Shown here piece by piece: positions 22,684 to 41,791 of a stretch of 64,000 bases of DNA (positions within the stretch are counted from its first letter, which is position 1; every line of letters starts with the position of its first letter). Position numbers and translations under genes: made by a program. The notes under the pieces were generated by a model. The model had not been told where the DNA came from. It was given only the letters and a program-made list of their open reading frames with translations, and did no database searches. Source of the DNA: Candidatus Latescibacterota bacterium. Its GTDB lineage: Bacteria; Latescibacterota; UBA2968; GCA-2709665. The stretch is from positions 1 through 64,000 of the forward strand of contig CAXXXF010000004.1 of NCBI GenBank assembly GCA_963667175.2. The letters run 5' to 3'.

Positions 22684-23673
22684 TCATGCTCCGGGAGCAA
22701 CTCCGGATTGCTCCCGGATTTCTCTGTACGCTTCGGTGGCCGACTGGGGTTTTCCGTAGTCCGCGGCCCATTCGCGATCTTCGGCGGGCTTTTTACCGAT
22801 GGCGCGCGCCATCTGGCGGAGGTGCGACCCCTCGCATCCGCAGCAGCCGCCGATATAGTTCACGCCCAGGCCCAGAGCTGTTTTGGCAAAGTCGCCCATT
22901 TCATAGCGGCTGATCTTGTAGTCGTCGAGCCTGTCCGGGAAGCCGGGCTGCCCCGTGAAGAACGGCACCTCCGGCGTGCATCGATAGGCGACCGGCTGGG
23001 CGGCCACGTGGCACGTTACCGCGTCTCGCATCTGCTCGATGGCTGGGAGCATGTAGGTGGGGTCCTGCCAGCAATTTGCGCCCACCACGTCGGCGCCCGC
23101 GCCTTCCAGCATCCTCGCGGCCTCGCCGGGGGACTTTCCGTCACGGGTTTGGGGCCCTTCGAACGCCAGCGTGATCATGGCCGGAAGGCCCGTCTTTTGT
23201 ACGCGTTCGAGGGCGATGAGGGCTTCGCCCGCGTGGAGAAACGTCTCGCCGATGATGAAGTCGACGCCTTCGGCCATCTGGTAACCGATCTGGGCATCGA
23301 ACAGGCGCCGGCATTCGTCCTCCGATTCGGGGTACTTCCACGTGAGGCAGATATTCCCGGCGACCAGCGCCCGGTCGCCGGCGGCCTCGCGTGCGACTCT
23401 CACTGCCGCGCGGTTGATCTCTTCCAGTCTGCCCGCGTAGCCGATCTGCGCCAGCTTGTTCTCGCTGGCGTAGAACGTGAGCACCTGCAGGACTTCCGCC
23501 CCGGCGTGCACGAATTCCTCGTGCAACGCAAGAAGCGCGTTCGGATTCTCAATGGTTACTTCCGGTGTAAACGGACCGGCCTGGACGTAGCCCCGGTTCT
23601 CCAGGGCGAGCAGGTACCCCCCGTCGCCCAACACCACGCCGCCTTCCAGTTGTTTCAGTATCGATTCGGGCAT
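22684..23673 (-). CDS. Homocysteine S-methyltransferase family protein (BHMT-like)
   Basis: GDGGY..ALE.RGY, GANC and IGGCCG zinc ligands. Confidence 0.9.
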   Translation of the reverse strand: MPESILKQLEGGVVLGDGGYLLALENRGYVQAGPFTPEVTIENPNALLALHEEFVHAGAEVLQVLTFYASENKLAQIGYAGRLEEINRAAVRVAREAAGDRALVAGNICLTWKYPESEDECRRLFDAQIGYQMAEGVDFIIGETFLHAGEALIALERVQKTGLPAMITLAFEGPQTRDGKSPGEAARMLEGAGADVVGANCWQDPTYMLPAIEQMRDAVTCHVAAQPVAYRCTPEVPFFTGQPGFPDRLDDYKISRYEMGDFAKTALGLGVNYIGGCCGCEGSHLRQMARAIGKKPAEDREWAADYGKPQSATEAYREIREQSGVAPGA

Positions 23674-23713
23674 TGGAATTCCCCCGTATCCTTAAAGTGA
23701 ACGTGATTTGTGC

Positions 23714-23870
23714 GGGCGCCCACAAGGTGCGCCTATGCAAATGCAATTTTGCCTCAGATATTGTTGAGCATTGTAACGGATTTTACAATTGCAATGCAAC
23801 GAAATTCGACGCGCGTATCTCAGAGCCCGTTTCCACGTCCTGCACAAGGGCAACCTTTGTGGTTGCCCTT
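23714..23870. repeat. Inverted pair of GTAG-type REP palindromes (REPIN-like) at the left island border
   Basis: gggcgcccacaaggtgcgcctatgc (23714-23738) and aagggcaacctttgtggttgccctt (23846-23870); same family as 39229-39330 and 51153-51177. Confidence 0.7.
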
Positions 23871-23892
23871 GTTGTTCGCACAACGAGGGTAT

Positions 23893-25101
23893 TCATTCAT
23901 GTATCCAGTGCTCTACCGGTTTCGAGAGGAACTCATCGAGGGCAATGCCGTCGCCCCCGACGAGCAAGCTGCGGGTCGGGCGAAAGGCCTCGGCGAAGGC
24001 GGCCATTCCGGCCGGGTTCCGGCCGGTTCGCTCGCTCTTGACTTCAATGGCCGTGACCGTCCGTCCGGAGCGCACGACGAAATCCACCTCGTTGTGGCGG
24101 TCGCGCCAGTAGAAGACCTCGCACGCGCCGCCGGCAGCGGCATTCACCAGGTGAGCGCCTACCGCCGACTCGACCAGCCGTCCCCAGAATTCGTGATCGG
24201 CGCGCGCCTGGGCGAAGTTGAGGCCTGATCCCGCTGTCATCAGGGCCGTATTGAAGACCTGCAACTTGGGGCTGGAACTCCGGCGCCGGACGGCCGCTCC
24301 GGCGTATTTCTGTATTCCCCGGAGCATTCCTGAGGCCGACAGCAGATCGAGATAGTGGGCCAGCGTCGTCGTGTTTCCGGCGTCATGGAGTTGGCCCAGC
24401 ATCTTCGAATAGGATAGGATCTGGCCGGAATAGGCGCAGCCCAATTCGAACAGCCGACGCAGCAGGGCCGGTTTGTCCACGCGTGAAAGCAGCAGGACGT
24501 CACGCGAAATGGTCGTTTCGATGAGTGAGTCCCTGATGTACCGGGACCATCGGCCCGGCTGCTTCGCAAGCGGCGCGGCCCCCGGATAGGCGCCGTAGAA
24601 CAGAAACTGCTCCAGAGACCAGCCGAACGCGGTTCGCATCTCCAAAAAGCTCCAGTGCGGAACGTGCAGAAGCTCGAAACGCCCGGCAAGGCTCTCCGTA
24701 AGGCCTCGTCCGATCAGGAGTTGCGCCGAACCTGACAGAACTACCTTGAGCCGTCGCTGGCTCAGCGTATCCTCGTCCCACATCCGCTTGACCGTTTCCG
24801 ACCAGTTCGGTGCTTTCTGGATTTCGTCCAGGATGAGAAGCGCGCCATCGTCCCCCGCATCGCCCGCGAGAATCCGCGCCGCGTCCCACTGTTGCGCAAT
24901 CCATTCCGGCCCGCGTAACGTGGGTTCGTCGGCGCTGGCATAGCGAAACGGTAGCCCGGACCTCTCCGCGACCTGTGTGATCAGGGTCGTCTTGCCCACC
25001 TGCCTCGCTCCGGCAACGACCTGAATAAAACGCCGCGGCTCACGCAAACGGCGCAGCAGATCCTCCGCTTGCGGACGCGTATATGACAATTTACTCAACA
25101 T
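23893..25101 (-). CDS. AAA_14-type ATPase with DUF4143 and a C-terminal PD-(D/E)XK-like motif
   Basis: GARQVGKT Walker A, LILDEIQ Walker B, ESLAGR, YWR...EVDFV...AIEVKS. Confidence 0.9.
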   Translation of the reverse strand: MLSKLSYTRPQAEDLLRRLREPRRFIQVVAGARQVGKTTLITQVAERSGLPFRYASADEPTLRGPEWIAQQWDAARILAGDAGDDGALLILDEIQKAPNWSETVKRMWDEDTLSQRRLKVVLSGSAQLLIGRGLTESLAGRFELLHVPHWSFLEMRTAFGWSLEQFLFYGAYPGAAPLAKQPGRWSRYIRDSLIETTISRDVLLLSRVDKPALLRRLFELGCAYSGQILSYSKMLGQLHDAGNTTTLAHYLDLLSASGMLRGIQKYAGAAVRRRSSSPKLQVFNTALMTAGSGLNFAQARADHEFWGRLVESAVGAHLVNAAAGGACEVFYWRDRHNEVDFVVRSGRTVTAIEVKSERTGRNPAGMAAFAEAFRPTRSLLVGGDGIALDEFLSKPVEHWIHE

Positions 25102-25131
25102 AATGAGTAATTATACTCAATACATTGAGTA
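25091..25131. promoter_or_regulatory. Two tandem palindromic operator-like sites over the ATPase start codon
   Basis: TTACTCA-N6-TGAGTAA (25091-25110) and TACTCAAT-N2-ATTGAGTA (25114-25131), centres 22 bp apart. Confidence 0.7.
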
Positions 25132-25216
25132 AATGGTAGTGTTTTTTTGGTCGGAGGGTGATGGAGCAGATGGAAATGAATCGATAGCACCGACGACGAA
25201 AATAACGCGTCGATGT

Positions 25217-25981
25217 TCAAGCCGCCAATTCCATTCTCGCGTCTTCACGCTGACTCCAAACCACTGGTCTGACGTCGTAGCTCCGTAGTGCGGCCATCAC
25301 TGTCTGATCGACCTTTCTTTCCGAATCGTTCAGAAATGCGTACACACGTGACCCCGGCGTGCGGACTTCCTTTGTGTCAATCCAAGCAAGTACAACGTTC
25401 TGAGCGGTTGAACGACTTGGGCGGTTGACTGTCTGTATGAGCCGCTCCGGCCGCTCCCGAGATTTCGGAATCACGAAATCAAAGAGATGATCATACCCCG
25501 TTTGACCTGTAAACTTCACCCTTGGCGTGTGGCGAATATCGCAGAGATCAAGCCAAGCTTCCACATCTTCATAAAAGATGTTCGCCACCGTGGGCGCCGC
25601 CATATAGAACATATCGTTGACGGCCAGCATCGCCTGTAAGAGATTGTGTTTTCGGATCGCAAAGTTGTCGGCTGATGCAAGGACCTGTAACTCACGTCCG
25701 TCTCTATGGACTCCAAAACCGTTGAGTGTCATTTGCAGCAGATCTTGCCGTTTGGGACTTTCGAGATTGCAACCACTTTGGGCAAGATCCTCAATTGTAT
25801 ATCCGTCATCCGTTAACACAAAGCCTCCGTTGGCATCTCTCGCATAGATCTGTAGGTAGTCGTTGTGTCTATCCAAATAAGGCGTGGTAATCTCGACCCA
25901 CTGGTCGATTTGGTTCAGGACTGTCTTGTCCTTGAGCCAAGCATAATAATCATCAATGAAAATCTGAATTTCTCGAATCAT
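25217..25981 (-). CDS. DUF1828/DUF1829-family protein
   Basis: [42 protein letters not shown]; start moved to ATG 25981. Confidence 0.85.
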
Positions 25982-26150
25982 GTAAAAAGCTCCCTTACGA
26001 CATTCGGCGGTCGCGTGACGTTGGAAAATTTCAGGAATCCAACAAACGTCACGGACCATTGGCGGCGTGAGGGCATATTGAACAGAAAAACGTCCGGGCG
26101 ATACTCTCAGTTCTTCCTCCGAATGTAGCCTTCACAAGATGTGAATTGAA
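25978..26150 (-). pseudogene. Probable remnant of the small partner gene (DUF6978-like) usually found upstream of DUF1828/1829
   Basis: Frame ending [26 protein letters not shown] overlaps the next ATG (ATGA); in-frame stop upstream; family assignment is from recalled similarity. Confidence 0.45.
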
Positions 26151-26170
26151 GAATGCATGTCCGAACCCTA

Positions 26171-27910
26171 CTATCGACGCAGTTTCGGCAAAAACTCCTT
26201 CAATTTCGTTAAGGCGTGTGTACACTCCTCCGCACTCGCACCGAAGATTCCGCTCGTTACGTACGGCGACCCATCCTGCAATGTTACAAGCGACTCTTCC
26301 ATCTCTTTGAAGACCGAACCTTGGTCTCGTCGGTATGCGAAAGCTCCCGGTGGCGCCCAGTACCTGTCATAGGGCTTGTAATGGGCGCAGCCAAGCGCCA
26401 TCAGTATCTCTAGCTTGTTGAATAAAAGTGTGTACTGATTAGTACCGGGTACGATTCGCTTGGCATGTGATCTTATTGCCTGGTGTATCCAGTCATTGAG
26501 TGGTGCATGGCTCCTTTCCATTCCTTGCAGTTTACACATTGCCTGTCTGCCATCCACAGAAAAACAAGAAGGTGGCAATAGCCTGACAGCGGGTAAATCC
26601 TCCTCGTATTTTCTGTGAATAGTTGTCCCAAACACGCTTCCAACAAAGCTAAGCCGACCAGCTTCGACCGCACCCAATCCCAGCGCGAATAACAAGAGCG
26701 TTGCCGGGTATTTTTCTAAATCAAGCCAGATGACATTTCCCCCGGTAGATGTCGTCGATCCAAGACGCTGCAGCGACCTTTGCCAAACTTGGTAGTGTTC
26801 CTCTTCTGCCCAATGACCACCCACCGCCGCCATTGCCAGCAGTGTTGAACAGGCGGCATCGTATTTGCGAACACGCTTGGTAATCGATTCACTATCTGGA
26901 GTCGAACCACCTTGCAGGGCGAAATCTTCGCCTGATGTCACGTCGATAACTCGCTCGACGGCGTCATGGATCAGATTTGATAACCGAATTCGGTATCGGG
27001 TATCCGGAAGATAGCGTTCCAGACTTGCTACTGCAGCCTCGGTGGAAAGCGGGTGGGGCTTAGAGTATTCTTCAATGGACTCTACATGTTGCTGAACAGC
27101 CGTGAAGAATGAATCAGCATCGTCAATCGGAACCATATCTGCTTCTCGATGCTCAATCAACCTTCGCGCCTCTTCGCCTGGTTCGCCCCTGGACGCCCAG
27201 TACGTGGTGAATCGGCGCGATGGCGCACGGATCAATGCGCTTCGCATTGCACCGTCCCATTCAGCCGACCATCCGCACACGATAAGGCCGAACTCGTCGA
27301 AGATCTGGTCCAAGAGTTTATCGTACTCCGGCGGATACTCATCAAGTTCGGCGGGGGTATTTCTTATGCGGGTATCGACATAATCGCCATTTACCTTGAA
27401 AACGCAACACTGCGTGTGTATCAATGGTAGGGCGCCCTCGACCTGATCGGACGAACTGAGGGTCGTCGGTACAACGCCAACATCATTCAGGGCGGTTTCG
27501 ACGAGACGGTCGAAATTCGTCGTGACGATAACCTTGATGAAACCTTTCGCGGCCAGTGCCGCGATAGCCCGATGCGCCGCTGTCGGCGCTTTAAACCCTT
27601 CCTGGCGCTCCTCGTCAGTCGGCTCAAAATATCCACGGAGCAACTGTTGTCGCTCGGCTTGCGTCCTCGCGAGTTCGTTGAGTAGATCTGAGTACGACGC
27701 CTCTTTGTCGAATTTCTCCACGTACCATCGTTCCGGATCCGGCTCGCATGTTTCGCCACTGAGTTTAGCCAGTTTGCGGATCAAATCCAGCGTGATCTCC
27801 CAGCCCGTCGGAATCTTCGCCGAGCGGGTTACCCCTGATCCCTCGAGAATGGCATATACACCAGGATTGGCCTGAATCGAGAATGACAGTGAGTGGATTG
27901 GATCTATCAA
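26171..27910 (-). CDS. SIR2-like (SIR2_2) domain protein with a helical C-terminal region
   Basis: GSGVTRSAKIPTGW, VTTNFDRL, KVNGD (family motif KxHGD), LIVCGWS..D. Confidence 0.88.
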   Translation of the reverse strand: MIDPIHSLSFSIQANPGVYAILEGSGVTRSAKIPTGWEITLDLIRKLAKLSGETCEPDPERWYVEKFDKEASYSDLLNELARTQAERQQLLRGYFEPTDEERQEGFKAPTAAHRAIAALAAKGFIKVIVTTNFDRLVETALNDVGVVPTTLSSSDQVEGALPLIHTQCCVFKVNGDYVDTRIRNTPAELDEYPPEYDKLLDQIFDEFGLIVCGWSAEWDGAMRSALIRAPSRRFTTYWASRGEPGEEARRLIEHREADMVPIDDADSFFTAVQQHVESIEEYSKPHPLSTEAAVASLERYLPDTRYRIRLSNLIHDAVERVIDVTSGEDFALQGGSTPDSESITKRVRKYDAACSTLLAMAAVGGHWAEEEHYQVWQRSLQRLGSTTSTGGNVIWLDLEKYPATLLLFALGLGAVEAGRLSFVGSVFGTTIHRKYEEDLPAVRLLPPSCFSVDGRQAMCKLQGMERSHAPLNDWIHQAIRSHAKRIVPGTNQYTLLFNKLEILMALGCAHYKPYDRYWAPPGAFAYRRDQGSVFKEMEESLVTLQDGSPYVTSGIFGASAEECTHALTKLKEFLPKLRR

Positions 27911-28137: not shown

Positions 28138-28584
28138 TCATCTACTCTCTTCGAGTTTGCGTTTTATTCGTCGCATACAGACGTCCGGGGCTTTTGCCAG
28201 ACGACACTCCCAAATGCGGATGACTTTCCATCCCAACTGGCGAAGGAGACGGTTTGCCCGCCGGTCTCGAGCCTGGGTTCGTGTAATCTTGTCATGCCAC
28301 GCTTTCGGATTTGTCTTCGACGTCAAGTTTCTGCAATTGTGCCCGTGCCAAAAACAGCCGTCCACAAAGACAGCGACCTTCTCCTTCAAAAATGCGAAAT
28401 CTGGTCGTCCCGGAAGCGGTTGGTTTCGTCTCCATCCAGGTAAACGCCACTCGCGCAAGAGACGTGCAAGGCGTTCTTCGGTCGTTTTATTACCCTTGCT
28501 ACGCACGCGGGTCATCAGTTCACCACGACGCAAACCGCCAAACGTCGTACGTTCCTTTCTTGGGTCACCGGGCCAATGACTCAT
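28138..28584 (-). CDS. vsr: Very-short-patch repair endonuclease
   Basis: M.RVRSKGNKTTE, GRPDF, FVDGCFWHGH, GWKVIRIWEC. Confidence 0.95.
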   Translation of the reverse strand: MSHWPGDPRKERTTFGGLRRGELMTRVRSKGNKTTEERLARLLREWRLPGWRRNQPLPGRPDFAFLKEKVAVFVDGCFWHGHNCRNLTSKTNPKAWHDKITRTQARDRRANRLLRQLGWKVIRIWECRLAKAPDVCMRRIKRKLEESR

Positions 28585-28598
28585 GGTCTCGCACCACG

Positions 28599-29687
28599 TT
28601 AATTTTCGGGTAATTCCCCAATTACGGAATGGACCTTCTGCGCAGCTAATTTTGCATATAAAGGGGGAACCGCATTGCCAATAAGATCACAAACTCTCTC
28701 CATGCTATCCGTGGTGAATCTGTAATTTTCGGGAAACGTCTGAAGCAGCGCTGCTTCTCGAACGGAGATCGTGTATCTGGATTTATCGGGATGGCCGAAA
28801 CGGCCTTTGGATGCCGTGGTACACCCACCGGTTATGGTGGGAGAGACCTGGTCCCACGCCATCCTTCCATACGTATTTGTGAAACCCCGATAGTCGCTTC
28901 GGTGACATTTCGGACGTACCGATTCATCAATTGCCAACCACGTTTTACCTGGTTCCGCGGCTTCTAATCTTTTCTTGACCTGAGGTTGAAGATTTCTAAC
29001 TACGTGCCAGTTATGAGACTGAGGTCCACCATTCCCGCGTGCTGCCTTTAACGTGATGGGTGCTCCCAAATGGCCGATCGCTTGCTCTACCGTTTTCCAC
29101 GGCCGCAGCCCGGATCCATCCTCCGGGACACGAGCATGAGTGGGTTCCGGTAACGGAACTTCGAATCCAAGTCCTGCTACGAGGACCAGTCGCCGTCGGG
29201 ACTGCGGTACTCCAAAATCGGCCATCTGTTCAACCCGCCAACTGTACTTGTATCCAAGATCGTCCATGACGCCAAGGAACTGATCGAAAATTCCCTTGCC
29301 CCGATTTAGGACGCCAGGGACGTTTTCCATAAATACCGAACGTGGAAGAATCGCTTCGATGACGTCGGCCATCGCAAGTAGAAGCTCATTTCGCGGGTCG
29401 GCTTCCTGGTATTTGCTTGTAAGCGAACAGAAACCCTGACAGGGTGCGCAACCCGCCAGAAGCGAAATTCGGTCGCTACCGGCCGCCTCCAAGAGAGCCG
29501 AACCGGACACGTCGCGAATATCGCTTGTCAGCAACTGTGTTCGTGGATGGTTCCGTTTGTAGGTTTTCGCCGCGTCAGAGTCTATTTCAACGGCTGCCGC
29601 GACGTTGAATCCCGCATTGCGGATGCCTTTTGTCAACCCGCCGCACCCGGCGAATAGATCGATTGCAATTGGTCTTGCTGTGCTCAT
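28599..29687 (-). CDS. dcm: DNA (cytosine-5)-methyltransferase
   Basis: [41 protein letters not shown]. Confidence 0.96.
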
Positions 29688-32232: not shown

Positions 32233-32248
32233 AGGTGTGGTATCCACC

Positions 32249-35041
32249 CTAACGCCGGGCTGTTGTTCGCCCCCGCCGCTTCGGTTTCGCCTTGGCCGCA
32301 AGCGGCGCGACTATTTTTTCATACAGCCCCAGCAAATGTTCCACGCGCTCACGCTCAGAAGCGAAGCCCGTACGCCGGTATAGTCTATCGACGGCGCTGT
32401 CCAGCCTCTGGTGCGCCTTGCGAAGGTCAGGAGGCATCAAGTCGGGGTCGTACAGGTCGGCAAGCGTCGCGTCAGGATGATTCGCGCGAGCGGATAGAAC
32501 GGCGTAGGCGTGGGTTGCAAGCCGTTTCAGGCGTTCTGGCGGTACGGGGGGCATCGGAAACGTATTGTACACGATGCCGATTCCGTATGAAAAGTCACTT
32601 TTGAGCCTTCCTCCGATATTCCTGACCCATGCCATGTGCAATGTCGATGTTAATAGTCCGAATTGCCAAAGGGAGGCGTTTAGCAGTACACGTATCTTAT
32701 TGCTCGGAATCACAGGAGGTTCCAGCCATGCAATCGGAATATAGTCGCGCCGTTCGGAGCTGACTTCCGGCACCACCATGAAAGGGGCCGCTGGAATGAC
32801 GTTGACGTGGTAGAGCTTTGGCGTCATTGCAAGTGTGCGGGTAGGCGCGCTCCTGCTCGCTAACCGATAGTCGCGAACGGCAGCTATGCGTTCCCTGACT
32901 TTCGGTAGTGTCTTGAGTATCTGAGGAGGAACGTCGGCGAGGTGAAGAATCCAGCGCATTCCACCCTGGAGAAACTCGCGGCTGCCGACGAACGGGCGCA
33001 AATACGGTTCAGCGGCCGGTTCATCGCGGAGGAAAGCGGCGCGTTCGTCTGCCTTGAAGATATAATGCCCACCATCGATCGGCTTGGAGCCGATGATCAG
33101 CTTCGGCAGCCCATTGACAGGTAGATGTGACTCCCTTACCACGACTCGCGGATTGGTCAAACTTCCCGCGTCGAAGAGGTAGGGCGAGAGTGCGGTGTGT
33201 TGGCTCTGTTGCGGATCACCATTGGCTGTCTCGTACGAAAACAGACGTTTCTGTCGCGGTGAATCGTCGCGCTTCGTCAATCCAATGATGACGACGTGAA
33301 CGTGCGCCATCCCGCGTGCGTCCGATCCCCAGGCAAAGGTACGGTGGGCAAAGGCGATTTCGAGTTTGCAACGGTCAAACAGGACCGGCCAGAGTTGTGA
33401 GACCTGCTCGCCCTGCGTGATCGAATTGGTGGCCACAAAACCGATTCGTGCCTCGCTATTCTGCACGTATTCCCCAGCCTTGATGAACCACGCGGTCACA
33501 TAGTCGAGCGTGCCGCCGCTCTTCCCCAGCGCGGCGAGGCGGCGCACCTGCTCTCGCTGCTCGTCCGACTGAAACTTGGCGCCTATGAACGGCGGATTCC
33601 CCAGAACGAAGGAACATTCCTCCGGGGGCAGAAGTTCGGACCAATCGAATTCGAGCGCATTGCCCTGCCGGATGTGCGGCGACTTCGCCAGTGGGATGCG
33701 TGCGAAAGTCTCACCAAACTCAAGGCTCAAACGGACATTCATGATGTGATCCATCATCCAAAGCGCTACTTCGGCGATGCGCGCTGGAAACTCCCCTAAC
33801 TCGATGCCGAAGAACTGGTCCACGTTGACAATAACAAGCTGTGTTGGAAAGACGTCGGTTTGGGTTTTCGGGTGAATCTCTCTTAAAACCTCGATTTCCA
33901 ATGCGCGCAATTCGCGGTACGCGACAATGAGAAAATTGCCGCAGCCGCAGGCCGGGTCGAGAATGCGCAGGTCGCGGAGCCTCTGCCGGAACGTGTGAAG
34001 CGCGGGAATCCGGCGCGTATCACGACGGGCCTTCAATTTGCGAAACTCTTCCCGCAATTCGTCGAGGAACAGCGGCTCGATGACCTTGAGGATGTTCTGT
34101 TCCGTCGTATAGTGGGCACCCTGCCGGCGACGTTGGTCCTTGTCCATTACCGACTGGAATAACGAGCCGAAAATTGCCGGCGAGATGTTCGACCAATTGA
34201 AATTGCAGGCGTCAATCAGCTTTTCGCGCATCTCAGAATTGAATGACGGGATGGGCAATGGGTCACGAAACAGGTCGCCGTTGACGTATGGGAAGCGGTC
34301 GAGGTCTTCATCGAGCGTGGTAGGGCGCTGTTCTTCGTGGGTGTTGAGAACCTGGAACAAGTGCATGAGGCGGCTTCCGAGATCCGTCCCGTCAACATTC
34401 GTACGGTTTTCCAGGTAATCGAGAAAGACGTCGCGCGGCTCGAAGATGCCAGTGTCGTCCGCAAAGAAGCAGAAGACAATGCGAACGAGGAATTGCTCCA
34501 GGTCGTGTCCGGTGTAGCCGGATGCAGCCAGCGCGTCATGGAGAAGACCGACGCGTTCCGCCGCCGCGATGTTGACCGGATCCTGATCCTTAAAGGTCCG
34601 CTTCTGAACACCGAGGATAAAGCCGAACTTTTCAACATGATCAGGAAGGTCGGCGAGCGAGAAACGAACTTCCTCGCGTTCATCCCGGTCGATCAGATCG
34701 AACGTCTGGAAGTCACACTGCAACTGGTAACGAGGTCTTTCGTGCTCCTGCAAGGCGTCGAAATAGGCATCCGCCTGCTCTCGCGCCTTCTCCAGATCGA
34801 CACCCGCGCTCTTCTGCTCGACAAGCAATACGCCCGGCCAGAACAGATCGATGAATCCTCTGGAATCATCCACGCGCTGGACATGCTCCTCATAGCGGGC
34901 GACCGTACGGCGTTTCACGCCGAAAATCTCGAAGAATTCGTTGTAGAAACTTTGAGTCTCGCCCTTCTCGTATCCCGAATCCTTCCACTCATCAGCAAAT
35001 CGGGAGGCACGAGAGCGGATTTCATTCCACGATAGACGCAT
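32249..35041 (-). CDS. MmeI/YeeA-like Type IIL/IIG fused restriction endonuclease-adenine methyltransferase
   Basis: N-terminal IDLFWPGVLLVEQKS, GAHYT, LDPACGCGNFL, GNPPF, C-terminal TLADLYDP..H..LD.AVD..Y. Confidence 0.92.
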   Translation of the reverse strand: MRLSWNEIRSRASRFADEWKDSGYEKGETQSFYNEFFEIFGVKRRTVARYEEHVQRVDDSRGFIDLFWPGVLLVEQKSAGVDLEKAREQADAYFDALQEHERPRYQLQCDFQTFDLIDRDEREEVRFSLADLPDHVEKFGFILGVQKRTFKDQDPVNIAAAERVGLLHDALAASGYTGHDLEQFLVRIVFCFFADDTGIFEPRDVFLDYLENRTNVDGTDLGSRLMHLFQVLNTHEEQRPTTLDEDLDRFPYVNGDLFRDPLPIPSFNSEMREKLIDACNFNWSNISPAIFGSLFQSVMDKDQRRRQGAHYTTEQNILKVIEPLFLDELREEFRKLKARRDTRRIPALHTFRQRLRDLRILDPACGCGNFLIVAYRELRALEIEVLREIHPKTQTDVFPTQLVIVNVDQFFGIELGEFPARIAEVALWMMDHIMNVRLSLEFGETFARIPLAKSPHIRQGNALEFDWSELLPPEECSFVLGNPPFIGAKFQSDEQREQVRRLAALGKSGGTLDYVTAWFIKAGEYVQNSEARIGFVATNSITQGEQVSQLWPVLFDRCKLEIAFAHRTFAWGSDARGMAHVHVVIIGLTKRDDSPRQKRLFSYETANGDPQQSQHTALSPYLFDAGSLTNPRVVVRESHLPVNGLPKLIIGSKPIDGGHYIFKADERAAFLRDEPAAEPYLRPFVGSREFLQGGMRWILHLADVPPQILKTLPKVRERIAAVRDYRLASRSAPTRTLAMTPKLYHVNVIPAAPFMVVPEVSSERRDYIPIAWLEPPVIPSNKIRVLLNASLWQFGLLTSTLHMAWVRNIGGRLKSDFSYGIGIVYNTFPMPPVPPERLKRLATHAYAVLSARANHPDATLADLYDPDLMPPDLRKAHQRLDSAVDRLYRRTGFASERERVEHLLGLYEKIVAPLAAKAKPKRRGRTTARR

Positions 35042-35269: not shown

Positions 35270-35327
35270 AGGGCTCTTCTTTCTTCCAGGTCACACACGC
35301 ATGGGGACGCGCGACGAAATCAAACCG

Positions 35328-35381
35328 TTGCCGGTCATTGATGGCCGACAACTGGCGTTGTAGGACATAAGTGGCCGTCAA
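35328..35381. repeat. 54-bp four-box derivative of the palindromic element, copy B
   Basis: ttgccggtca-4-tggccgacaa-6-ttgtaggaca-4-tggccgtcaa; contains the DUF4276 stop codon. Confidence 0.85.
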
Positions 35382-35998
35382 AACACGCTTCTTTCCTCCG
35401 CAAGCCCCATCAGCACGTTGATAAATCGTTTTGCGTGGGGCGATGCACTTGTGACTTTCGTTGGGTCGATTATCGCGAGGATTTCAAAACTGTGTCTTCC
35501 TTTGTCATAGGTGCCTTTCCTGGTGTTACGGGCAGCACGACGAATTCCGTCGTCTACATCTTTCTTTGGTACCTCTTCAATTTCCGGATTCCGCGGAAGC
35601 GCGTTTGCCTGGAAGCCCTGGCCGTAGTATTCTCCAAGGGCTGTGCGATCTGCAAGAAACCAGGACTCCATCGCTTGCACCATCAAATGGCATTGGTCGT
35701 CCTTCGCGCCGTCGGGTCGGTCCCAGTCATCACGATCCTTGAGGTGCTGCCACGGTCCCGGTTTCCGGACCGGCTCTTCAGCGTCTACTAAGAGCAGAGC
35801 ATATTCGCTTTCATTTGCAGCATCTTTGCTTCTTTTTGCAAAACGGCTGAACGCGTTCGTACGACTGCCGCCGGCTACGAATTCAGGCATATTTCCCTGT
35901 AATCCGGATTTCTCGATGAACCTCATAAAGCCCCTGCGACAGGCGCTGCTTGTGGTCTTTTTATTGCCACCGCCTTCCACGTATACCTTTATTTTCAC
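35378..35998 (-). CDS. DUF4276-family (TOPRIM-like) protein
   Basis: IKVYVEGGG, LLVDAE, MVQAMESWFLAD, YDKGRHS; GTG start overlaps the ATPase stop. Confidence 0.88.
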   Translation of the reverse strand: MKIKVYVEGGGNKKTTSSACRRGFMRFIEKSGLQGNMPEFVAGGSRTNAFSRFAKRSKDAANESEYALLLVDAEEPVRKPGPWQHLKDRDDWDRPDGAKDDQCHLMVQAMESWFLADRTALGEYYGQGFQANALPRNPEIEEVPKKDVDDGIRRAARNTRKGTYDKGRHSFEILAIIDPTKVTSASPHAKRFINVLMGLAEERSVF

Positions 35999-37188
35999 CA
36001 CCGATTGCCTCCAATTTCCCCGCTTATCCATAGCTCACCAAGCCGGTAGTCTTTAAGCCATATCTCGAGCTCCGAGGCGTCAAGACGACGGAGTTGTGTC
36101 GCGCCGTCCGATTTATCGCAAACAATCACCGCTTCCGGTGTATCGGTGAGTGCATCAATGAGAATGTCGGAGTGCGTTGTGACGAAAATCTGGCTACGAG
36201 AAGACGCCTCGACCAAAAGCGACGCAACCTCCGGGATCACATCCGGATGGAGACCAGTCTCCGGCTCCTCAATGCAGACGACAGGCGGCGGATCGGGATT
36301 GCAGAGCACAGCGAGCAGGCAAAGATACTTTAGTGTGCCATCGGAAAGCCGGGTGGCCGGTACGGCATGTTGCAGGCCTTTCTCGTGGAAAGAAACCTGG
36401 ACCGTGTTACTTTGTGTTCTGCTACGCATATCCTCAATTGACGGATGAAAGGAATTTAAGCGATCCATAATCTGGCGCTTTACGGGAGGCTGGTTCAGCA
36501 GATTGTCAAGAATCAGTCCGATATTTGAAGCGTCCTCGAACAGGTTGTCCTGCGGGAGGTCGGCCTGCTGAGGAAGGCGGGATGGCGCAGACCGACCGAG
36601 GTTCCACTCCCGGTAGAAGCGCATTTGCTCGAATTGTTCGGCCAGGTAGGTCAATTCCGGAAAGGAGTCGGGATCTCGGCGCTGCGAGAGAATGGACTGG
36701 TCGGGAATAACTTCGTCTCGCGTGAGACGTCGGTCTGGTCGAGACTCCTGCGTGAAGACGTTGAGCACTGGCTGGCCATCCCGGTATCGATAGAAGATAT
36801 ATGGCTCTTCGTTCCCTGGGGTCGGTGTCTCATTCTCGATTGCCTCTTCCAGCAGTTCAAAACGTGCACCTGTTTCGGTGAATGACAGCCGATACCTGAG
36901 TGGCTGTTTGTCCGCGTAATCGACGGCTACATCCACGGCTGCCGTACCGAGTCGAGTGGCTCCCTTCCATAGCCACTCGATAACGCCTCCTCCCTTTCGA
37001 ATCGGCGCCTGAAGATCCCGACCAGGCGCGGCTGCAATTAGCGACAGCACTTCGATCAAGTTTGATTTCCCGGAAGCGTTAGGGCCGATAAGCACGTTTA
37101 ACGGCTCTAACTCAAACTCTGCGTCCCAGGAACCGTAGGATAGGATATTTTCCAGACGGATCGTTCGGATAAACCTCCTGCCATCCAT
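35995..37188 (-). CDS. ABC/SMC-like AAA ATPase (AAA_15/AAA_21 type)
   Basis: GPNASGKSN, LSDGT signature, CIEEPETGLHP, TTHS. Confidence 0.92.
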   Translation of the reverse strand: MDGRRFIRTIRLENILSYGSWDAEFELEPLNVLIGPNASGKSNLIEVLSLIAAAPGRDLQAPIRKGGGVIEWLWKGATRLGTAAVDVAVDYADKQPLRYRLSFTETGARFELLEEAIENETPTPGNEEPYIFYRYRDGQPVLNVFTQESRPDRRLTRDEVIPDQSILSQRRDPDSFPELTYLAEQFEQMRFYREWNLGRSAPSRLPQQADLPQDNLFEDASNIGLILDNLLNQPPVKRQIMDRLNSFHPSIEDMRSRTQSNTVQVSFHEKGLQHAVPATRLSDGTLKYLCLLAVLCNPDPPPVVCIEEPETGLHPDVIPEVASLLVEASSRSQIFVTTHSDILIDALTDTPEAVIVCDKSDGATQLRRLDASELEIWLKDYRLGELWISGEIGGNRW

Positions 37189-37508: not shown

Positions 37509-37618
37509 CTAGAATCGTCAACGTAATGGTGAATTCAAGCGTGTCTCAATGCCAATCGCTGGCGCTTCCCGGACTCGCTACAAGTAGGTCCGTTTGGCTA
37601 CCGGCCACAATCAACCCG

Positions 37619-37712
37619 TTGCCGGTCATCCATTGCCGACAAATGAGTTTGTTGGCCACTTTCTCTCGATATTGGCCAACAAATGGCGTTGTGGGACATA
37701 AGTGACCGTCAA
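37619..37712. repeat. 94-bp six-box palindromic element, copy C
   Basis: Same box order and spacer lengths (4-6-14-6-4) as copy A, with diverged spacer sequences. Confidence 0.85.
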
Positions 37713-37807
37713 GATACTTCCCTGCCTTCCGCAACATTTATGAGTTCGGGAAACGCAAGGACTGCTGCCTTGCGGCCCCTTCCTTAATTCCGTAAAAGCG
37801 CCAGGGT

Positions 37808-38092
37808 TCAGGCATCTTCCAACAGCGCCTTTGCATCCGGCATTACATCCTCAACGGATTTGCCGGTAAGCCGCAAATAAAGAGCATCCGGACACAGTTC
37901 CACGTCCTTACCCCAGGCGATGCCTCCGTTCGTCGTAATATGTACAGTTTTAAAGAACGTCCGGCTGTTCCAGGACTCGAAGACACCGCGCCCGGCGAGA
38001 TCAGACAGGTCGATTTCTCCCGCGGCGCCGTCCGAGAAGCGAAGCCAGATTCGGTAGCCGCTTCGCGGCTCGACGTCGGTTGGTCGGATCAT
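37808..38092 (-). CDS. DUF2442-family protein
   Basis: YRIWLRFSDG..GEIDL, GVF, IAW...ELCPDALY; ATG 38092 with RBS ggagg. Confidence 0.88.
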   Translation of the reverse strand: MIRPTDVEPRSGYRIWLRFSDGAAGEIDLSDLAGRGVFESWNSRTFFKTVHITTNGGIAWGKDVELCPDALYLRLTGKSVEDVMPDAKALLEDA

Positions 38093-38225
38093 GTTTCCTC
38101 CATATGGCAGGTTATTCCATATCCGTACGGATAGTATACAGATTCTTTGGAACCACAAGGCCCAGAGAGTCGCATTCCGATCGCTTCGGCACAGTCATTC
38201 ATGCATCACCTGGGAAATCCATACA

Positions 38226-38372
38226 TCAATCCAGACCATCTGCGACCGTTGCGTCAAAATCGCCCCAGTCTTCGCCGGCGGATGCCATGGCGCGGTATGT
38301 ATCCTCCCACGACGGCGGGTTCGGTTCTCTTCCATAAGAGAGAACAGCCTCTTCCCTTTCTCTGTCGGTCAC
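38226..38372 (-). CDS. 48-aa ORF resembling the acidic C-terminal half of AbrB/MazE-type antitoxins
   Basis: GTG overlaps the vapC TGA; SWEDTYRAMA..EDWGDFDATVADGLD. Confidence 0.5.
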   Translation of the reverse strand: MTDREREEAVLSYGREPNPPSWEDTYRAMASAGEDWGDFDATVADGLD

Positions 38373-38788
38373 GGTGTTTTCCATGGATTCGTGACGTCGA
38401 CGTCCAGGCCGTTGAAATCCGTGACGTTTCTCGTTGCAACGGACAGATCGTGGGCCCTGGCGGTTCCGGCGATGAGCGCATCCCCCAAATCCAGCACTCG
38501 TCCGGCGCGATGCGCCTGCGTTCGAAAGTGAGCCGCCCATTCCGCGCCCGCTCTGTCGACAGGAAGAACGCGGTCCTGGTAGTCCGTGATGATCCCCGAC
38601 AGCGCCGCGCGCAGTACGTCGCGCCGTCGTCCCTGAGGCAATCGCTGCAGACCGAACTCCAACTCATGCACCACAACCGCCGACAGCCACAGATCGTGCG
38701 GCTCAGTCAGAAATGCCAACACATTCGCGTCCGGCGCAGTCCGGGTCAGTTCAGAGACCACGTTGGTGTCCACGAGAAATCCGTTCAT
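38369..38788 (-). CDS. vapC: PIN-domain toxin
   Basis: FLVDTNVVSE, HELEFG, DALIAGTA, ATRNVTDF. Confidence 0.93.
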   Translation of the reverse strand: MNGFLVDTNVVSELTRTAPDANVLAFLTEPHDLWLSAVVVHELEFGLQRLPQGRRRDVLRAALSGIITDYQDRVLPVDRAGAEWAAHFRTQAHRAGRVLDLGDALIAGTARAHDLSVATRNVTDFNGLDVDVTNPWKTP

Positions 38789-39069
38789 TCCGCGCCGCCG
38801 TCAGCGAACGGGATCTCCCGCCGGGACGTACGATCGGAAGGAACGTCGAGATTCGTGCCGCGCGGCATGTTGTCGATCAACCACCGGCCAAGCGGCTTGC
38901 GTGGTGACGCCTGAGCCTTCCAAATATGCTCGGGCACCACAACGAAAGCCTTCCGCGCGCCGATTCGCTGCGGGCCTTCCGCCTCGGACAGACGAAGGAT
39001 TTCAGACAGCCGCGCCTTGGCCTCTGCGACAGTCCAGACCCGGACTGGTTTGGGATATTGGATGGTCAT
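38785..39069 (-). CDS. Phd/YefM-type antitoxin
   Basis: WTVAEAKARLSEILR..EGPQRI; ATGA overlap with vapC. Confidence 0.9.
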   Translation of the reverse strand: MTIQYPKPVRVWTVAEAKARLSEILRLSEAEGPQRIGARKAFVVVPEHIWKAQASPRKPLGRWLIDNMPRGTNLDVPSDRTSRREIPFADGGAE

Positions 39070-39085
39070 ATCGTCTCCTTTTGTT

Positions 39086-39126: not shown

Positions 39127-39228
39127 GGGGTTTACACAGGGAATCTACAAAAACAGCCGATCCAGGAACCATGCGGATCGGCAAACTTTGACGGCAACGC
39201 TGCCCTGCGCGCCAACGTCAAAATGTAA

Positions 39229-39330
39229 GGGCGCCCACAAGGGACGCCCCTTCGTCTTACCCCTACGTCGGCCACCCTCAACCCCAATCGAAGCCACCAT
39301 CCTGTGTAGGGGCGACCCTTGTGGTCGCCC
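39229..39330. repeat. Inverted pair of GTAG-type REP palindromes (REPIN-like) at the right island border
   Basis: gggcgcccacaagggacgccccttc (39229-39253) and gtaggggcgacccttgtggtcgccc (39306-39330). Confidence 0.75.
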
Positions 39331-39340
39331 GAAAGATGCG

Positions 39341-41791
39341 TCAGCATTTCATTTTTTCACTTCGGGGATCGTAAAGCGGTTCGCGCGAGACGGTGGCGCG
39401 ATGGCGATTGCCGAAGGTTTCGACGTCCACGGATGTTCCCGGCTTCGCGTACTCCTGTGGGAGGTAGCCGTACGCGATGAACTTGCCGACGGTGTACCCG
39501 TGGTTGGCGCTGGTGACGTACCCGAGTACGCGGCTGCCGTCCAGAACGGGCTCCTTCCCCATCACAACCGCGTCCGGATCGTCCAGGGTAAGGCAGCAGA
39601 GCTTCCGGTCGATTCCCATCTCGCGGATTTTCAACAGGGCATCCCGTCCCAGGAAGTCACCCTTGTCGAGCCTGACGGCCCAGCCGAGCCCGGCTTCGTA
39701 GGGGTTGTATTCCGTATGGAGTTCCGCTCCCCAGAGGCGGTATCCCTTTTCGAGCCGGAGCGCGTCGAACGCGCCGCTGCCGAGGGCAACGAGGCCGTGC
39801 CGGCGTCCGGCCTCCCAGAGCGTGTCCCAGAGCAGAAGCCCGAATTCAGCAGGCGCGTAGATCTCCCATCCCAGTTCCCCCACGTAGGAAATGCGCAGCG
39901 CGAGGGCGGGAATGGACCCGATTTGGATCCGCCTTGCTGAAAAATAGGGGAACGCCCGGTTGGTGAGATCGTCGCTGCAGACGCCTTGAAGGATCTCTCG
40001 GGCCTCGGGCCCCCACAGGCCAACGCCGCACCAGGCGGAGGTCACATCGGAAATCTGAACGGCGACCTCATCCCGGGCGTGGCGGGAAAACCATGCCAGG
40101 TCCCGCATCCCCGCGGCGGCCCCGGTGAGAACCAGGAAGCGGTCCGCGGCCAGCCGGGTGACGGTCAGATCGGCGGCGATGCCGCCCCTTGAATTGAGCA
40201 GGGCCGTATAGATCACCGTTCCGACCGGACGGTCCATCCGGTTGGCGGCGATGCGCTGGAGAAAATTCAGAGCGCCCGCGCCGGCGATTTCGATCTTCGT
40301 GAACGGCGTGATGTCGCACAGCCCCGCGCGGTTTCGGGTGGCCCGGTGTTCCATGCCCTGAACAGGAGACCAGTACCGCGCCTCCCAGCCGGTTCGCGAC
40401 GGCAGACCTTCCTCTTCGTCTAGCCGGACGTTGTTGGCTTCGAACCACTGCGGGCGTTCCCAGCCCGCCCCTTCGAAGAACACGGCATCGAGTGCTTTCA
40501 GGCGGGGATGGAACGGGCTGAGACGCAGGCCTCGCGGATGGTCCATCTGATCCAGCGGATGGATGATATCGTAGACTTCCCGGTATTGCTGCGCCCCCCG
40601 GGCTTCGACGTATTCACGGGTGTGGACGTGCGGGCCGAAGCGGTTGATATCGGCGTCCCTGAGGTCGATTTCCGGCGCGCCCGAGTCCATCCATTGCGCC
40701 ACGGCCTGCCCCACGCCGCCGCCGTGGGTGATCCATACGGCTTCGGCAACCCAGAGCCCGCGAACGTCGACGGACTCACCGAGCAGGGGCAACCCGTCCG
40801 GCGTGAAGGAGAAGAGGCCGTTGATCCTGTAGTCGAGACCGGCGTGTTTCAACGCGGGAATCAGTTCGTCGGCGGCCTCTCGCGCAACCGCGAAGTGTTC
40901 CGGCGTGAAGTCCATGATCGAGGGCGAGAGCCTGGCTTCATCCGGGCTGAGGAGGTCGTCCGGACTCACCGGGAGCGGCTCGTGTTTGTAGGAGCCGATG
41001 CCGTACCGGTCGGCCTGCTGCCGGAAATACATGGCGTAATCCTGGTGGCGCAGGATCGGGTGGACGACTTCCCGGGTTTCTCCCGCCAGTTCCGGGAGGG
41101 GCGTCGTGAGCGCGTACTGGTGCTGTACGGGCGTGAGCGGGATGGAGATTCTCGCCATGCGTCCGACGCGCGGCCCCCAGATACCCGCGCAGATCAACAC
41201 CTGGTCCGCGGCTATATAACCCCGGTCGGTGTCGATTCCGCGGACGCGGCCGTTGGACACCTCGATGCCGGTCACCGTGGTTCTTCCGTGAAACGCGGCG
41301 CCGGGTTCCGACGCGCGCGCCATGGCTTCGCAGGCTCGGACGGCTTTGGCAATGCCGTCGGAGGGAACGTAGTATGCGCCATGGATTCGGCCGGCGTCCA
41401 GAAGGGGGAGCATGGACCGGGTCTCTTCGGGCGAAGTGAGCCGGGCTTCCAGGTTCCAGGACCTGGCGGCGCCCAGTTTACGCTTCAGGTCTTCCATCCG
41501 TTCGGTCGTGTACGCGACTTCGAAACTGCCGACAGGATAGAAACAGGGCTGTCCGTCCAGGTTCAGCGAGTTGTACAGGGCAACCGTGTTCCGGGACAGA
41601 TCGGTCATTGTCTTCGAAAAGTTCGTCTGGAACACCAGCCCCGGCGCATGGGACGTCGACCCGCCGGTATCGAACAGGGGCCCCTGGTCCAGGACCACAA
41701 TGTCCTTCCAGCCCTGGCGTGTGAGATGGTAGACGGTGCTGCAGCCGACAATGCCGGCGCCGATGACAACCAGACGCGCGTGGGATTGCAT
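39341..41791 (-). CDS. GcvT-family FAD-dependent oxidoreductase (dimethylglycine/sarcosine dehydrogenase or oxidase-like)
   Basis: VVIGAGIVG, GSTSHAPG, FSFTPDG, WERPQWF, RISYVGELGWEIY, LRLEKGY; start moved to ATG 41791. Confidence 0.93.
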   Translation of the reverse strand: MQSHARLVVIGAGIVGCSTVYHLTRQGWKDIVVLDQGPLFDTGGSTSHAPGLVFQTNFSKTMTDLSRNTVALYNSLNLDGQPCFYPVGSFEVAYTTERMEDLKRKLGAARSWNLEARLTSPEETRSMLPLLDAGRIHGAYYVPSDGIAKAVRACEAMARASEPGAAFHGRTTVTGIEVSNGRVRGIDTDRGYIAADQVLICAGIWGPRVGRMARISIPLTPVQHQYALTTPLPELAGETREVVHPILRHQDYAMYFRQQADRYGIGSYKHEPLPVSPDDLLSPDEARLSPSIMDFTPEHFAVAREAADELIPALKHAGLDYRINGLFSFTPDGLPLLGESVDVRGLWVAEAVWITHGGGVGQAVAQWMDSGAPEIDLRDADINRFGPHVHTREYVEARGAQQYREVYDIIHPLDQMDHPRGLRLSPFHPRLKALDAVFFEGAGWERPQWFEANNVRLDEEEGLPSRTGWEARYWSPVQGMEHRATRNRAGLCDITPFTKIEIAGAGALNFLQRIAANRMDRPVGTVIYTALLNSRGGIAADLTVTRLAADRFLVLTGAAAGMRDLAWFSRHARDEVAVQISDVTSAWCGVGLWGPEAREILQGVCSDDLTNRAFPYFSARRIQIGSIPALALRISYVGELGWEIYAPAEFGLLLWDTLWEAGRRHGLVALGSGAFDALRLEKGYRLWGAELHTEYNPYEAGLGWAVRLDKGDFLGRDALLKIREMGIDRKLCCLTLDDPDAVVMGKEPVLDGSRVLGYVTSANHGYTVGKFIAYGYLPQEYAKPGTSVDVETFGNRHRATVSREPLYDPRSEKMKC

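Follow-up and report, generated by a model that had tools for sequence, protein, structure and literature searches.

How does an island of defence genes come to lie between two conserved genes, with the same short repeat at both of its ends and no integrase beside it? This question is raised by positions 23674-39340 of the stretch of DNA analysed here, a window of 64,000 nucleotides (nt) that corresponds to contig C4:1-64000 of a 5.52-Mb, 18-contig assembly (the source genome, G000). Seven defence modules and toxin-antitoxin genes, recognised with Pfam and PADLOC, fill this 15.7-kb island between a homocysteine S-methyltransferase-family gene and a dehydrogenase gene, and paired repetitive extragenic palindromic (REP) sequences stand at both borders. 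The preliminary description of the locus, whose view of the cargo as defensive was confirmed by these searches, had proposed that the flank genes originally stood side by side at a single REPIN (a REP doublet) and that the 15-kb cargo entered there, possibly through a trans-acting REP-associated tyrosine transposase (RAYT) or through REP-REP recombination. Comparison with 14 other species of the genus, from all of which the locus was fetched, and with 7 genomes from other genera of the family leads us to a different answer: the locus is likely an old, genus-wide core defence hotspot that has been remodelled in place and that is also the home of a RAYT-like gene and its REPINs, with the REPs marking the edges of the island rather than an insertion scar.

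No empty allele was found in the relatives. The methyltransferase and dehydrogenase genes are adjacent in 0/14 congeners and 0/7 other family genomes, and cargo is present at the locus in all 14 congeners (15/15 genus genomes with the source genome included). Ten congener intervals are contiguous and span 4.8-22.7 kb, none of them empty (Table 1), and in the other four (G002, G004, G005, and G011), where the locus is split over contigs or rearranged, cargo was found beside each flank gene. Outside the genus, two complete genomes have an orthologue of one of the genes: G015 has a methyltransferase orthologue of 80% identity, around which no dehydrogenase gene lies within about 6-12 kb, and G017 has a dehydrogenase gene of 70% identity, with the methyltransferase gene not nearby. 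The supposed ancestral adjacency of the flank genes is thus not borne out; the preliminary description had named relatives that never have the two genes side by side as the finding that would speak against it, and this is what the genomes searched gave. Of 18 public read runs that match the window, none covers half of it. Metagenome read contigs from four runs did contain joints between 23868-23872 and 39228-39230, which match the window over only 21-23 letters per side, that is, over the REP alone, and hold 15-35 unrelated letters in between. These joints were rejected as an empty site and represent other REP pairs in the metagenomes. Sponge-metagenome runs also yielded pieces of the window stretch without differences. 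As a separate observation, the hotspot of G011 is itself broken, with a methyltransferase fragment that lacks its island-facing end on a 33-kb contig and the dehydrogenase gene and remaining island, including a duplicated SIR2 fragment, on another contig.

The age of the cargo was approached by mapping the window proteins onto the 14 congener loci and reading the result against an rpoB tree of 20 rows (G002, with a partial rpoB, was omitted). The genus falls into two clades, clade A uniting (G011, G013, G007) with (G012, G000, G009) and clade B comprising G010/G014, then G006, then G003, then G004/G001 and G005/G008, with rpoB identities of 86-95% across the genus and of 94.9-95.2% for G009 and G012 against the source genome. 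G003, a member of the other clade, carries all window cassettes except DUF2442 in the same order, and ordered subsets of the cassettes are present in G001, G004, G005, G007, G009, G011, G012, and G013. Because the cassette order is the same in both rpoB clades, the cargo is best regarded as ancestral and the short alleles as reductions; the island looks older than the radiation of the genus, and the alleles of 4.8-5.8 kb look like losses. The short alleles nest among long ones, as in G008, whose sister G005 has both the M24B and the MmeI cassettes, and only the first 76 residues of the SIR2 gene are left in G007. The simplest history would be one old island with at least three reductions, and the collinear cassettes do not bear out the single 15-kb entry event of the preliminary description.

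Divergence along the island is mosaic. Against the sister species G009 and G012, the flanks of the source genome are 91-92% identical and the M24B cassette 98-99%, and against G009 the SIR2, MmeI, and HEC-01A genes reach only 77%, 79%, and 75%, respectively. The MmeI gene of the source genome is nearer to that of clade-B G003 (85%), and its HEC-01A gene is nearer to that of G013 (81%). This pattern is at odds with the species tree and points to the replacement of single cassettes by allele exchange. Further defence-type genes occupy the gaps between shared cassettes in relatives (DUF4268, HNH_5, DUF4365, Fic, Schlafen/AlbA_2, HepT-like, DUF4357, and TPR). None of the 45 gap open reading frames (ORFs) scanned at E <= 1e-5, of 51 in total with six ORFs of 91-135 aa left out, has an integrase, recombinase, or transposase domain, and neither does any ORF of at least 80 aa within 23674-39340, which agrees with the absence of a linked integrase in the preliminary description.

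The REP pairs at the borders are real and belong to one family, as previously described, and they lie 40 nt from the start of the methyltransferase-family gene and 10 nt from the stop of the dehydrogenase gene, both on the minus strand. The family is a hairpin, GGGCRNCC-ACAAG-GGNYGCCC, with an 8-nt stem (GGGCRNCC/GGNYGCCC) and a 5-nt loop, and CTAC, which is GTAG on the other strand of the hairpin, follows 34 of the 46 sites listed (of 49 at <=1 mismatch). It thereby carries the tetranucleotide-tagged hairpin by which REPs are defined in the portion of Quentin et al. 2018 (PMC6006769) at hand, namely GTAG or GTGG 0-2 nt 5' of a hairpin with a stem of 7-20 nt and a loop of 2-5 nt. An exhaustive, mismatch-tolerant scan with the pattern GGGCRNCCACAAGGGNYGCCC gave 38, 49, 62, and 92 sites in the source genome at 0, 1, 2, and 3 mismatches, and a separate count likewise arrived at 49. 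At <=3 mismatches, the window holds five sites, the four of the border doublets (Table 2) and one at 51157 (minus strand, 0 mismatches), and the island itself is free of them. The right pair forms an inverted doublet of canonical type, with arms that are 91% complementary. G012 has the left doublet too, with the same unusual spacing of 134 nt (blastn block 23713-26037 corresponding to 7168-9492 of G012).

Could the bracketing be a matter of chance, as the preliminary description had allowed for a very abundant repeat? The two border spacers (219 + 426 = 645 nt) hold 4 sites where about 0.007 are expected from 62 sites in 5.52 Mb, so that abundance does not explain the bracketing. The family is multi-copy, extragenic, and arranged in inverted doublets, with 49 sites in the source genome and 28-151 in congeners (<=1 mismatch); REPs of the source genome are mostly single, and G003, G005, and G014 have many doublets with a spacing of 78-83 nt. 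Among the 11 genomes with a contiguous interval (the source genome and ten congeners), the REP density of the interval exceeds the genome-wide density 9-149-fold in 10 (Table 1). Runs of same-strand REPs with a 66-67-nt period in G005 and G010 recall CRISPR arrays, a reading that was ruled out; since the "spacers" are near-identical, these runs are tandem duplications. An Rfam scan of 22000-42000 at E <= 0.1 gave zero matches, so neither the REPs nor the element B introduced below is a described RNA family.

Table 1. Interval between the flank genes and its REP content (<=1 mismatch) in genomes with a contiguous locus
Genome	Interval (nt)	REP sites in interval	Enrichment over genome-wide density
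G010	4785	14	149-fold
G008	5390	12	120-fold
G006	5437	4	91-fold
G014	5830	13	138-fold
G012	15174	6	40-fold
G007	16404	14	54-fold
G003	17225	9	18-fold
G001	17476 (taken from the phosphopantetheinyl transferase gene, as the methyltransferase gene is missing)	15	43-fold
G009	18573	0	none
G013	22699	3	9-fold
G000		3	22-fold

The reason for this concentration of REPs may lie in a gene that is absent from the window. Amid the REP array of G010 stands an intact 202-aa ORF on the minus strand (L035:7313-7921(-)) that encodes a RAYT-like HUH/Tyr protein, and orthologues of 74-82% identity occupy the same place in G014, G007, and G001, with that of G005 split over two contig ends. There is one orthologue (>=71% identity) per genome in these 5/14 congeners, always at the border with the methyltransferase gene, whose place it takes in G001, and REPs lie on both of its sides in the four contiguous cases (G010, G014, G007, and G001). 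The motifs MPNHVHGI (HUH) and LWQRNFYEHIVR...YIVDNP (W-Q...Y...N) are conserved in 4/4 intact orthologues, and the 202-aa protein keeps the HUH, catalytic Tyr, and W, Q, and R residues of a RAYT. These observations were further examined against the best solved relative, E. coli TnpA-REP (PDB 4er8), where a weak alignment (E 0.42) nevertheless covers the HUH, W94, Q95, R104, Y115, and N119 positions; the W, Q, and R residues read GTAG in TnpA-REP, according to the part of Quentin et al. 2018 (PMC6006769) that treats residue roles. Against the REP-associated tyrosine transposase model NF047646, the protein scores E 3.7e-16, and its match is broken into two stretches by an in-frame REP insert. 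The stretch that separates the HUH and Tyr motifs contains an in-frame copy of the gene's own REP in G010 and G001 and a degenerate one in G014; the scan found none in the G007 gene, where the homologous insert segment is still present in the protein. We did not meet an in-frame REP of this kind in the parts of the REPIN-RAYT literature consulted.

In the source genome, no orthologue of the hotspot gene was found, the best paralogues being 41-42% identical (37-38% by tblastn), and the RAYT-like protein has zero matches in G009 and G012. G012, a two-contig, 98%-complete assembly that carries both island and REPs, has no Y1-transposase match at all. The hotspot RAYT-like gene was probably lost in G000 and its two sister species. 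The source genome has three Y1_Tnp matches. One, on contig C3 (~192.5-193.1 kb, L057:1201-1806), is a bona fide RAYT that scores 100.8 bits on NF047646 (cut-off 80). Around it lie several copies of another and larger REPIN-like unit, whose core GAGGGCATCCCTGCCCTC has at least ~13 genome copies at <=2 mismatches by a best-match count that may be low. The other two are paralogues on C7 (about 59.5-60.1 kb and 62.9-63.4 kb), in which the position of the in-frame REP is taken by another, possibly hairpin-forming insert that translates as ...GAGLKPAPT..., and the CCACAAGG core was not found near them. Protein searches gave a further RAYT-like paralogue on C8 and a partial one on C6; in the REP listings, from which their surroundings were judged, C8 is devoid of sites, and the C6 match has none at a distance of 70 kb or less. 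The preliminary description had suggested searching this genome for a RAYT flanked by REPs of the border type, and none was found. Its idea of a RAYT-type enzyme tied to the locus therefore stands for five congeners and fails for the source genome, where the gene was not found.

REP totals are partly in agreement with a loss of this kind. Genomes with the hotspot gene hold 84-148 sites at <=1 mismatch (G001 110, G005 148, G007 91, G010 106, and G014 84), and the RAYT-less clade holds 49 (G000), 31 (G009), and 54 (G012), which would fit the published decay of REPINs after RAYT loss. According to the part of the preprint bioRxiv 10.1101/2021.07.10.451892 drawn on here, RAYTs occur once per genome, are passed on vertically, and stay in one and the same extragenic space, and REPINs decay once the RAYT is gone. 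We make no statistical claim on these totals because the genomes are few and related.

A second repeat, here called element B, is private to the hotspot. It consists of a ~100-nt core of GGCCAACAA-type motifs in alternating orientation, with two adjacent copies downstream of HEC-01B, of which the nearest lies ~130 nt upstream of MmeI, and a third upstream of HEC-01A (Table 2); it was found nowhere else in the source genome. In the 15 genomes searched, it is present in 13/14 congeners, with every match inside the hotspot. When 185,579 species genomes were scanned for its exact pattern, 14 stretches came up, of which 13 belong to seven contigs taken as congener hotspot contigs and the fourteenth to a 3.8-kb contig with an MmeI gene that aligns to the hotspot of several congeners. 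Element B bounds HEC-01 in G000, G003, G006, and G007 and Fic in G001, G005, and G008, lies between HEC-01 and Fic in G009 and G013, where the cassette order differs between the two genomes, and stands solo in G012 and G010, which lack both cassettes. Its copies are only 73-94% alike and hence old, and its confinement to the hotspot gives no sign of spread. Element B may be either a promoter or operator common to several cassettes, which would also serve recombination as a substrate, or a genuine recombination site. The likeness between element B copies also explains a metagenome joint from 35162 to 37615, which was not retained as a junction.

Taken together, these observations suggest the following course. 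An ancestral cassette array would have stood between the methyltransferase-family and dehydrogenase genes before the sampled species diverged, in the order PDC-S01, PDC-M24B, SIR2, Vsr/C5-methyltransferase/restriction enzyme, MmeI, HEC-01 or Fic, DUF2442, and VapBC. Lineage-specific deletions, the swapping of single cassettes for diverged alleles, and the insertion of further defence-type genes would then have remodelled it, presumably for the most part through homologous recombination over the conserved flanks and over internal sequences such as element B. The same interval would be the home locus of the RAYT-like HUH/Tyr nuclease and its GTAG-tagged REP family, with REPINs accumulating around the nuclease gene and in the non-coding parts of the hotspot as passengers, and the border doublets of the source genome are probably what is left of such a REP cluster after RAYT loss.

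Several points weigh against this account of a hotspot remodelled in place. The low GC content of the island (0.47-0.57, against 0.60-0.66 in the flanks) would not be expected had the cargo been inherited only vertically, and it speaks for import that continues. The 18.6-kb island of G009 has zero REPs in its interval, so that REPs are dispensable for keeping the hotspot and their link with it could be a coincidence of where the RAYT-like gene sits. The RAYT-like protein falls under both curated cut-offs (NF047646, 59.3 against 80 bits; PF01797, 17.4 against 23 bits), and REP number tracks the gene uncleanly, since G003 and G008 hold 151 and 95 sites with no hotspot RAYT. The species tree is that of a single gene, with a support of 81/86 at one key node, and homologous recombination as the route of exchange is inferred and not observed.

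Among the alternatives, one that we consider unlikely would make the REPs working parts of the locus, with REPIN arrays and the RAYT-like nuclease driving cassette gain and loss by nicking at GTAG hairpins or by REP-REP recombination. The extreme and conserved REP enrichment, the REP arrays that replace the methyltransferase gene in G001 and PDC-S01/M24B in G007, and the nuclease gene within the hotspot of 5/14 congeners would fit this. It is opposed by the REP-free cassette boundaries inside the source-genome island, by the full island of G009 without a REP, and by the islands of G012 and G009 without a RAYT-like protein match. The one recent deletion that could be mapped also speaks against it: relative to its sister G005, G008 lacks 7.3 kb, a segment that starts ~130 nt to the right of a REP and stops ~90 nt to the left of element B, and REP-REP recombination is ruled out as its cause since its ends are not at a REP. 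No junction showing REP-mediated cargo movement was seen, and with the G012 island existing in an assembly without a Y1-transposase match, the movement of cargo by REP-REP recombination or by a RAYT, as the preliminary description had it, found no support.

It is likewise improbable, in our judgement, that the hotspot has its own cis-acting machinery, in which the RAYT-like nuclease acting on REPINs and a protein binding element B would make the nicks or substrates for integrase-free cassette swapping; if it were true, the benefit of the REPIN-RAYT system to its host in this lineage would be the upkeep of a plastic immune locus. We think it quite unlikely that the cargo is an unrecognised site-specific mobile element that inserted repeatedly at the same site, its recombinase elsewhere or lost and element B or the REPs serving as attachment sites. 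The direct repeats of element B around HEC-01 and Fic, its solo copies, the different Fic/HEC-01 order of G009 and G013, and the low GC would suit such an element, against which stand the absence of any integrase, recombinase, or transposase in the island and the 45 scanned gap ORFs, together with the old and strictly local copies of element B. Very unlikely, finally, is the original proposal of flank genes once joined at a REPIN, which can point to a bracket of one-family REPs with none inside, an integrase-free island of low GC, and a bona fide RAYT elsewhere in the genome, and which fails on the missing adjacency in all relatives sampled, on the collinear order over both clades, on borders that each hold a whole REP doublet instead of half of a split REPIN, on a C3 RAYT flanked by a different repeat, and on the missing cognate orthologue in G000.

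The hotspot reading places the locus among known systems. Core defence hotspots have been described as cDHS1 and cDHS2 of Pseudomonas aeruginosa (Johnson et al. 2023, PMC10250203) and as hotspot #37 of E. coli (Hochhauser et al. 2023, PMC10121019), and the portions of these two papers at hand report that such sites are mostly without identifiable mobile elements and propose flanking homologous recombination as their route of transfer. The present locus shares with them a fixed position between conserved genes, near-universal occupancy, varied systems, lower GC, and the lack of mobile-element genes; in the sense of Johnson et al., 15/15 genomes are occupied, and the island has seven modules with no integrase or transposase. 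It differs in that it is conserved across the species of a genus (rpoB 86-95%) rather than among the strains of one species, in that its cassette order is largely collinear, and in that it also houses a RAYT-like gene, dense REPIN arrays, and the private element B.

REPIN-RAYT systems, reportedly the subject of work by Bertels and Rainey in 2011, offer a second comparison. The resemblance begins with a GTAG-tagged hairpin that in relatives forms inverted doublets with a spacing of 78-83 nt and that reaches from tens to ~150 copies in a genome. An HUH/Tyr gene with the repeats on its flanks is present once per genome, in a constant position, in five species, and REP counts are lowest, with mostly single REPs, in the clade where no RAYT-like orthologue was found. 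In contrast to such systems, the RAYT-like protein of the locus lies below the curated cut-offs, carries its own REP in frame, and has its home in a defence hotspot. The host lineage is also probably not proteobacterial, unlike that of most described REP families as surveyed in the available portion of Quentin et al. 2018 (PMC6006769). A literature search for a link of REPINs or RAYTs to defence islands gave none among the top-ranked matches, most matches lying outside that top rank. Integron cassette arrays and dif-module-type cassettes are bounded by short recombination sites, and HEC-01 and Fic resemble them in lying between short structured repeats, in leaving a solo copy when missing, and in their varying order; unlike those cassettes, they have no integron integrase or other recombinase nearby, and neither the island nor the gap ORFs scanned in relatives yielded a recombinase domain. 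Mobile elements can also insert into REP sequences, and here REPs do stand at the borders of foreign-looking DNA, but with no mobile-element gene, split REP, or empty site in relatives.

PMC10250203 and PMC10121019 present it as an open question how defence islands arise and are renewed where mobile-element genes are lacking, and bioRxiv 10.1101/2021.07.10.451892 does the same for the benefit by which RAYTs and REPINs are maintained. The locus is a genus-wide allele series of one hotspot in which both questions meet, with a RAYT-like gene and its REPs in a constant position next to as many as seven defence systems and a private repeat bounding exchangeable cassettes. Even if this co-location is coincidental, the series offers a clean natural experiment on how cassettes are lost, how alleles are replaced, and how REPINs decay once their RAYT is gone, and it teaches that REPs at both ends of an island are not proof of insertion at a REP. 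The type of hotspot is known; what appears to be new is its genus-wide conservation with a recognisable ancestral order, its co-location with the home of a REPIN-RAYT system, and the private repeat at its cassette boundaries.

The positions of all features are given in Table 2. All real genes in 23674-39340 are on the minus strand. The MmeI-family enzyme is complete, as PF20464, PF20465, PF20473, PF20466, and PF20467 (N-terminal nuclease, helical spacer, methyltransferase, target-recognition, and C-terminal domains) all exceed their cut-offs in one chain. The DUF2442 protein is possibly antitoxin-like, going by a weak DhiA antitoxin match (32 bits against a cut-off of 200). The VapC/Phd-like pair (38369..39069) adjoins the dehydrogenase gene in 14/14 congeners, and the 255-aa plus-strand ORF 38147-38914 that overlies it is spurious, the real genes being on the other strand.

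Table 2. Features of the locus, with positions in the window
Feature	Position	Strand	Support or remark
YjhG/YagF-family D-xylonate dehydratase	19865..21868	plus	left core flank; NCBIfam TIGR03432, 1103 bits vs cut-off 808
4'-phosphopantetheinyl transferase	21769..22644	plus	left core flank, convergent with methyltransferase-family gene; NCBIfam NF042922 E 5e-68, below cut-off
Homocysteine S-methyltransferase-family gene	22684..23673	minus	Pfam PF02574 E 1e-44; "BHMT-like" in the preliminary description
Left REP doublet	23714-23734(+), degenerate, 2 mismatches; 23848-23868(-), 1 mismatch	both	134 nt start to start
PDC-S01 candidate defence gene (AAA_14 + DUF4143)	23893..25101	minus	PADLOC PDLC04791 E 7e-176; Pfam
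Near-perfect palindrome, two ~24-nt arms	25086..25137		TTACTCAAT...ATTGAGTAA type; upstream of PDC-M24B
PDC-M24B candidate defence gene (DUF1828 + DUF1829)	25217..26059	minus	PADLOC PDLC04539 E 1.5e-104; Pfam
SIR2-domain protein, PDC-S65	26171..27910	minus	PADLOC PDLC05061 E 2.5e-210; Pfam SIR2_2
Type II restriction-modification module	28138..31681	minus	PADLOC Vsr, MTase_II, REase_II
Vsr nicking endonuclease	28138-28584	minus	Pfam PF03852
C5 cytosine methyltransferase	28599-29687	minus	Pfam PF00145
HATPase_c_3 restriction-enzyme-like protein	29684-31681	minus	Pfam PF13589
MITE-like repeat, 290 bp	31950..32239		between restriction-enzyme gene and MmeI; terminal inverted CTGTCCAA/TTGGACAG, direct repeat GGTATCCACCC on both sides
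MmeI-family type IIG restriction-modification enzyme	32249..35041	minus	PADLOC PDLC03598, 1171 bits
Element B, two adjacent copies	35174-35269 and 35342-35403	plus	downstream of HEC-01B, upstream of MmeI
HEC-01 two-gene system	35378..37188	minus	PADLOC, Pfam
HEC-01B, DUF4276 protein	35378-36031	minus	PADLOC E 5e-78
HEC-01A, AAA_21 ATPase	35995-37188	minus	PADLOC E 8e-167
Element B, third copy	37617..37783	plus	upstream of HEC-01A
DUF2442 protein	37808..38158	minus	Pfam PF10387 E 1.7e-12
VapC PIN toxin	38369-38788	minus	Pfam PIN E 3e-14; NCBIfam VapC below cut-off
Phd/YefM-like antitoxin	38785-39069	minus	weak PhdYeFM match
Right REPIN	39229-39249(+), 0 mismatches; 39310-39330(-), 0 mismatches	both	81 nt start to start; second arm with GTAG at 5' side
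DAO-FAO_M-GCV_T-GCV_T_C dehydrogenase	39341..41980	minus	right core flank; four Pfam domains over cut-offs

The flank genes themselves lend no support to the glycine-betaine catabolic pair that had been suggested for them, in which a betaine-homocysteine S-methyltransferase (BHMT) would supply the substrate of the dehydrogenase. The methyltransferase-family protein reaches 89.4 bits against the BHMT model NF005718, whose cut-off is 338, so that only membership of the Pfam family PF02574 can be claimed; its best NCBIfam match, which likewise stays under the cut-off, is to the N-terminal half of a model for a bifunctional methyltransferase/MTHFR, and it has 9 matches in the genome. G001 lacks the gene, G002 and G011 have a fragment of it, and in G006 it is interrupted. 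The dehydrogenase gene persists in G001, G002, and G006, appears as two adjacent matches (residues 131-876) in G011, and is broken over three frames in G008. Its domain architecture places it in the dimethylglycine/sarcosine dehydrogenase family, with no NCBIfam equivalog above cut-off. Given the low BHMT score, the nine genome matches, and the loss of the methyltransferase gene in relatives that keep the dehydrogenase gene, the metabolic pairing was a guess that finds no support here. The true start of the dehydrogenase probably lies ~45-60 codons inside the 879-aa ORF, because congener homologues align from residue 41-60 and the G010 ORF is 834 aa long.

On the left, the D-xylonate dehydratase gene is present at 85-92% nt identity in 14/14 congeners. 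Two minus-strand ORFs in this region are spurious, a 993-aa one at 19043-22024, where the real gene is the dehydratase on the other strand, and one at 21883-22662, where the real gene is again on the opposite strand.

Two smaller features complete the island. The MITE-like repeat (miniature inverted-repeat transposable element) has 19 further full-length copies in the genome at 91-100% identity, and its site is empty in G012, where the aligned blocks abut at 15942-15952; a 141-aa ORF overlying it (31787-32212) is probably spurious. The palindrome ahead of PDC-M24B is likely an operator; it also stands upstream of the PDC-M24B homologue of G005 and persists in G008 despite the deletion of that gene.

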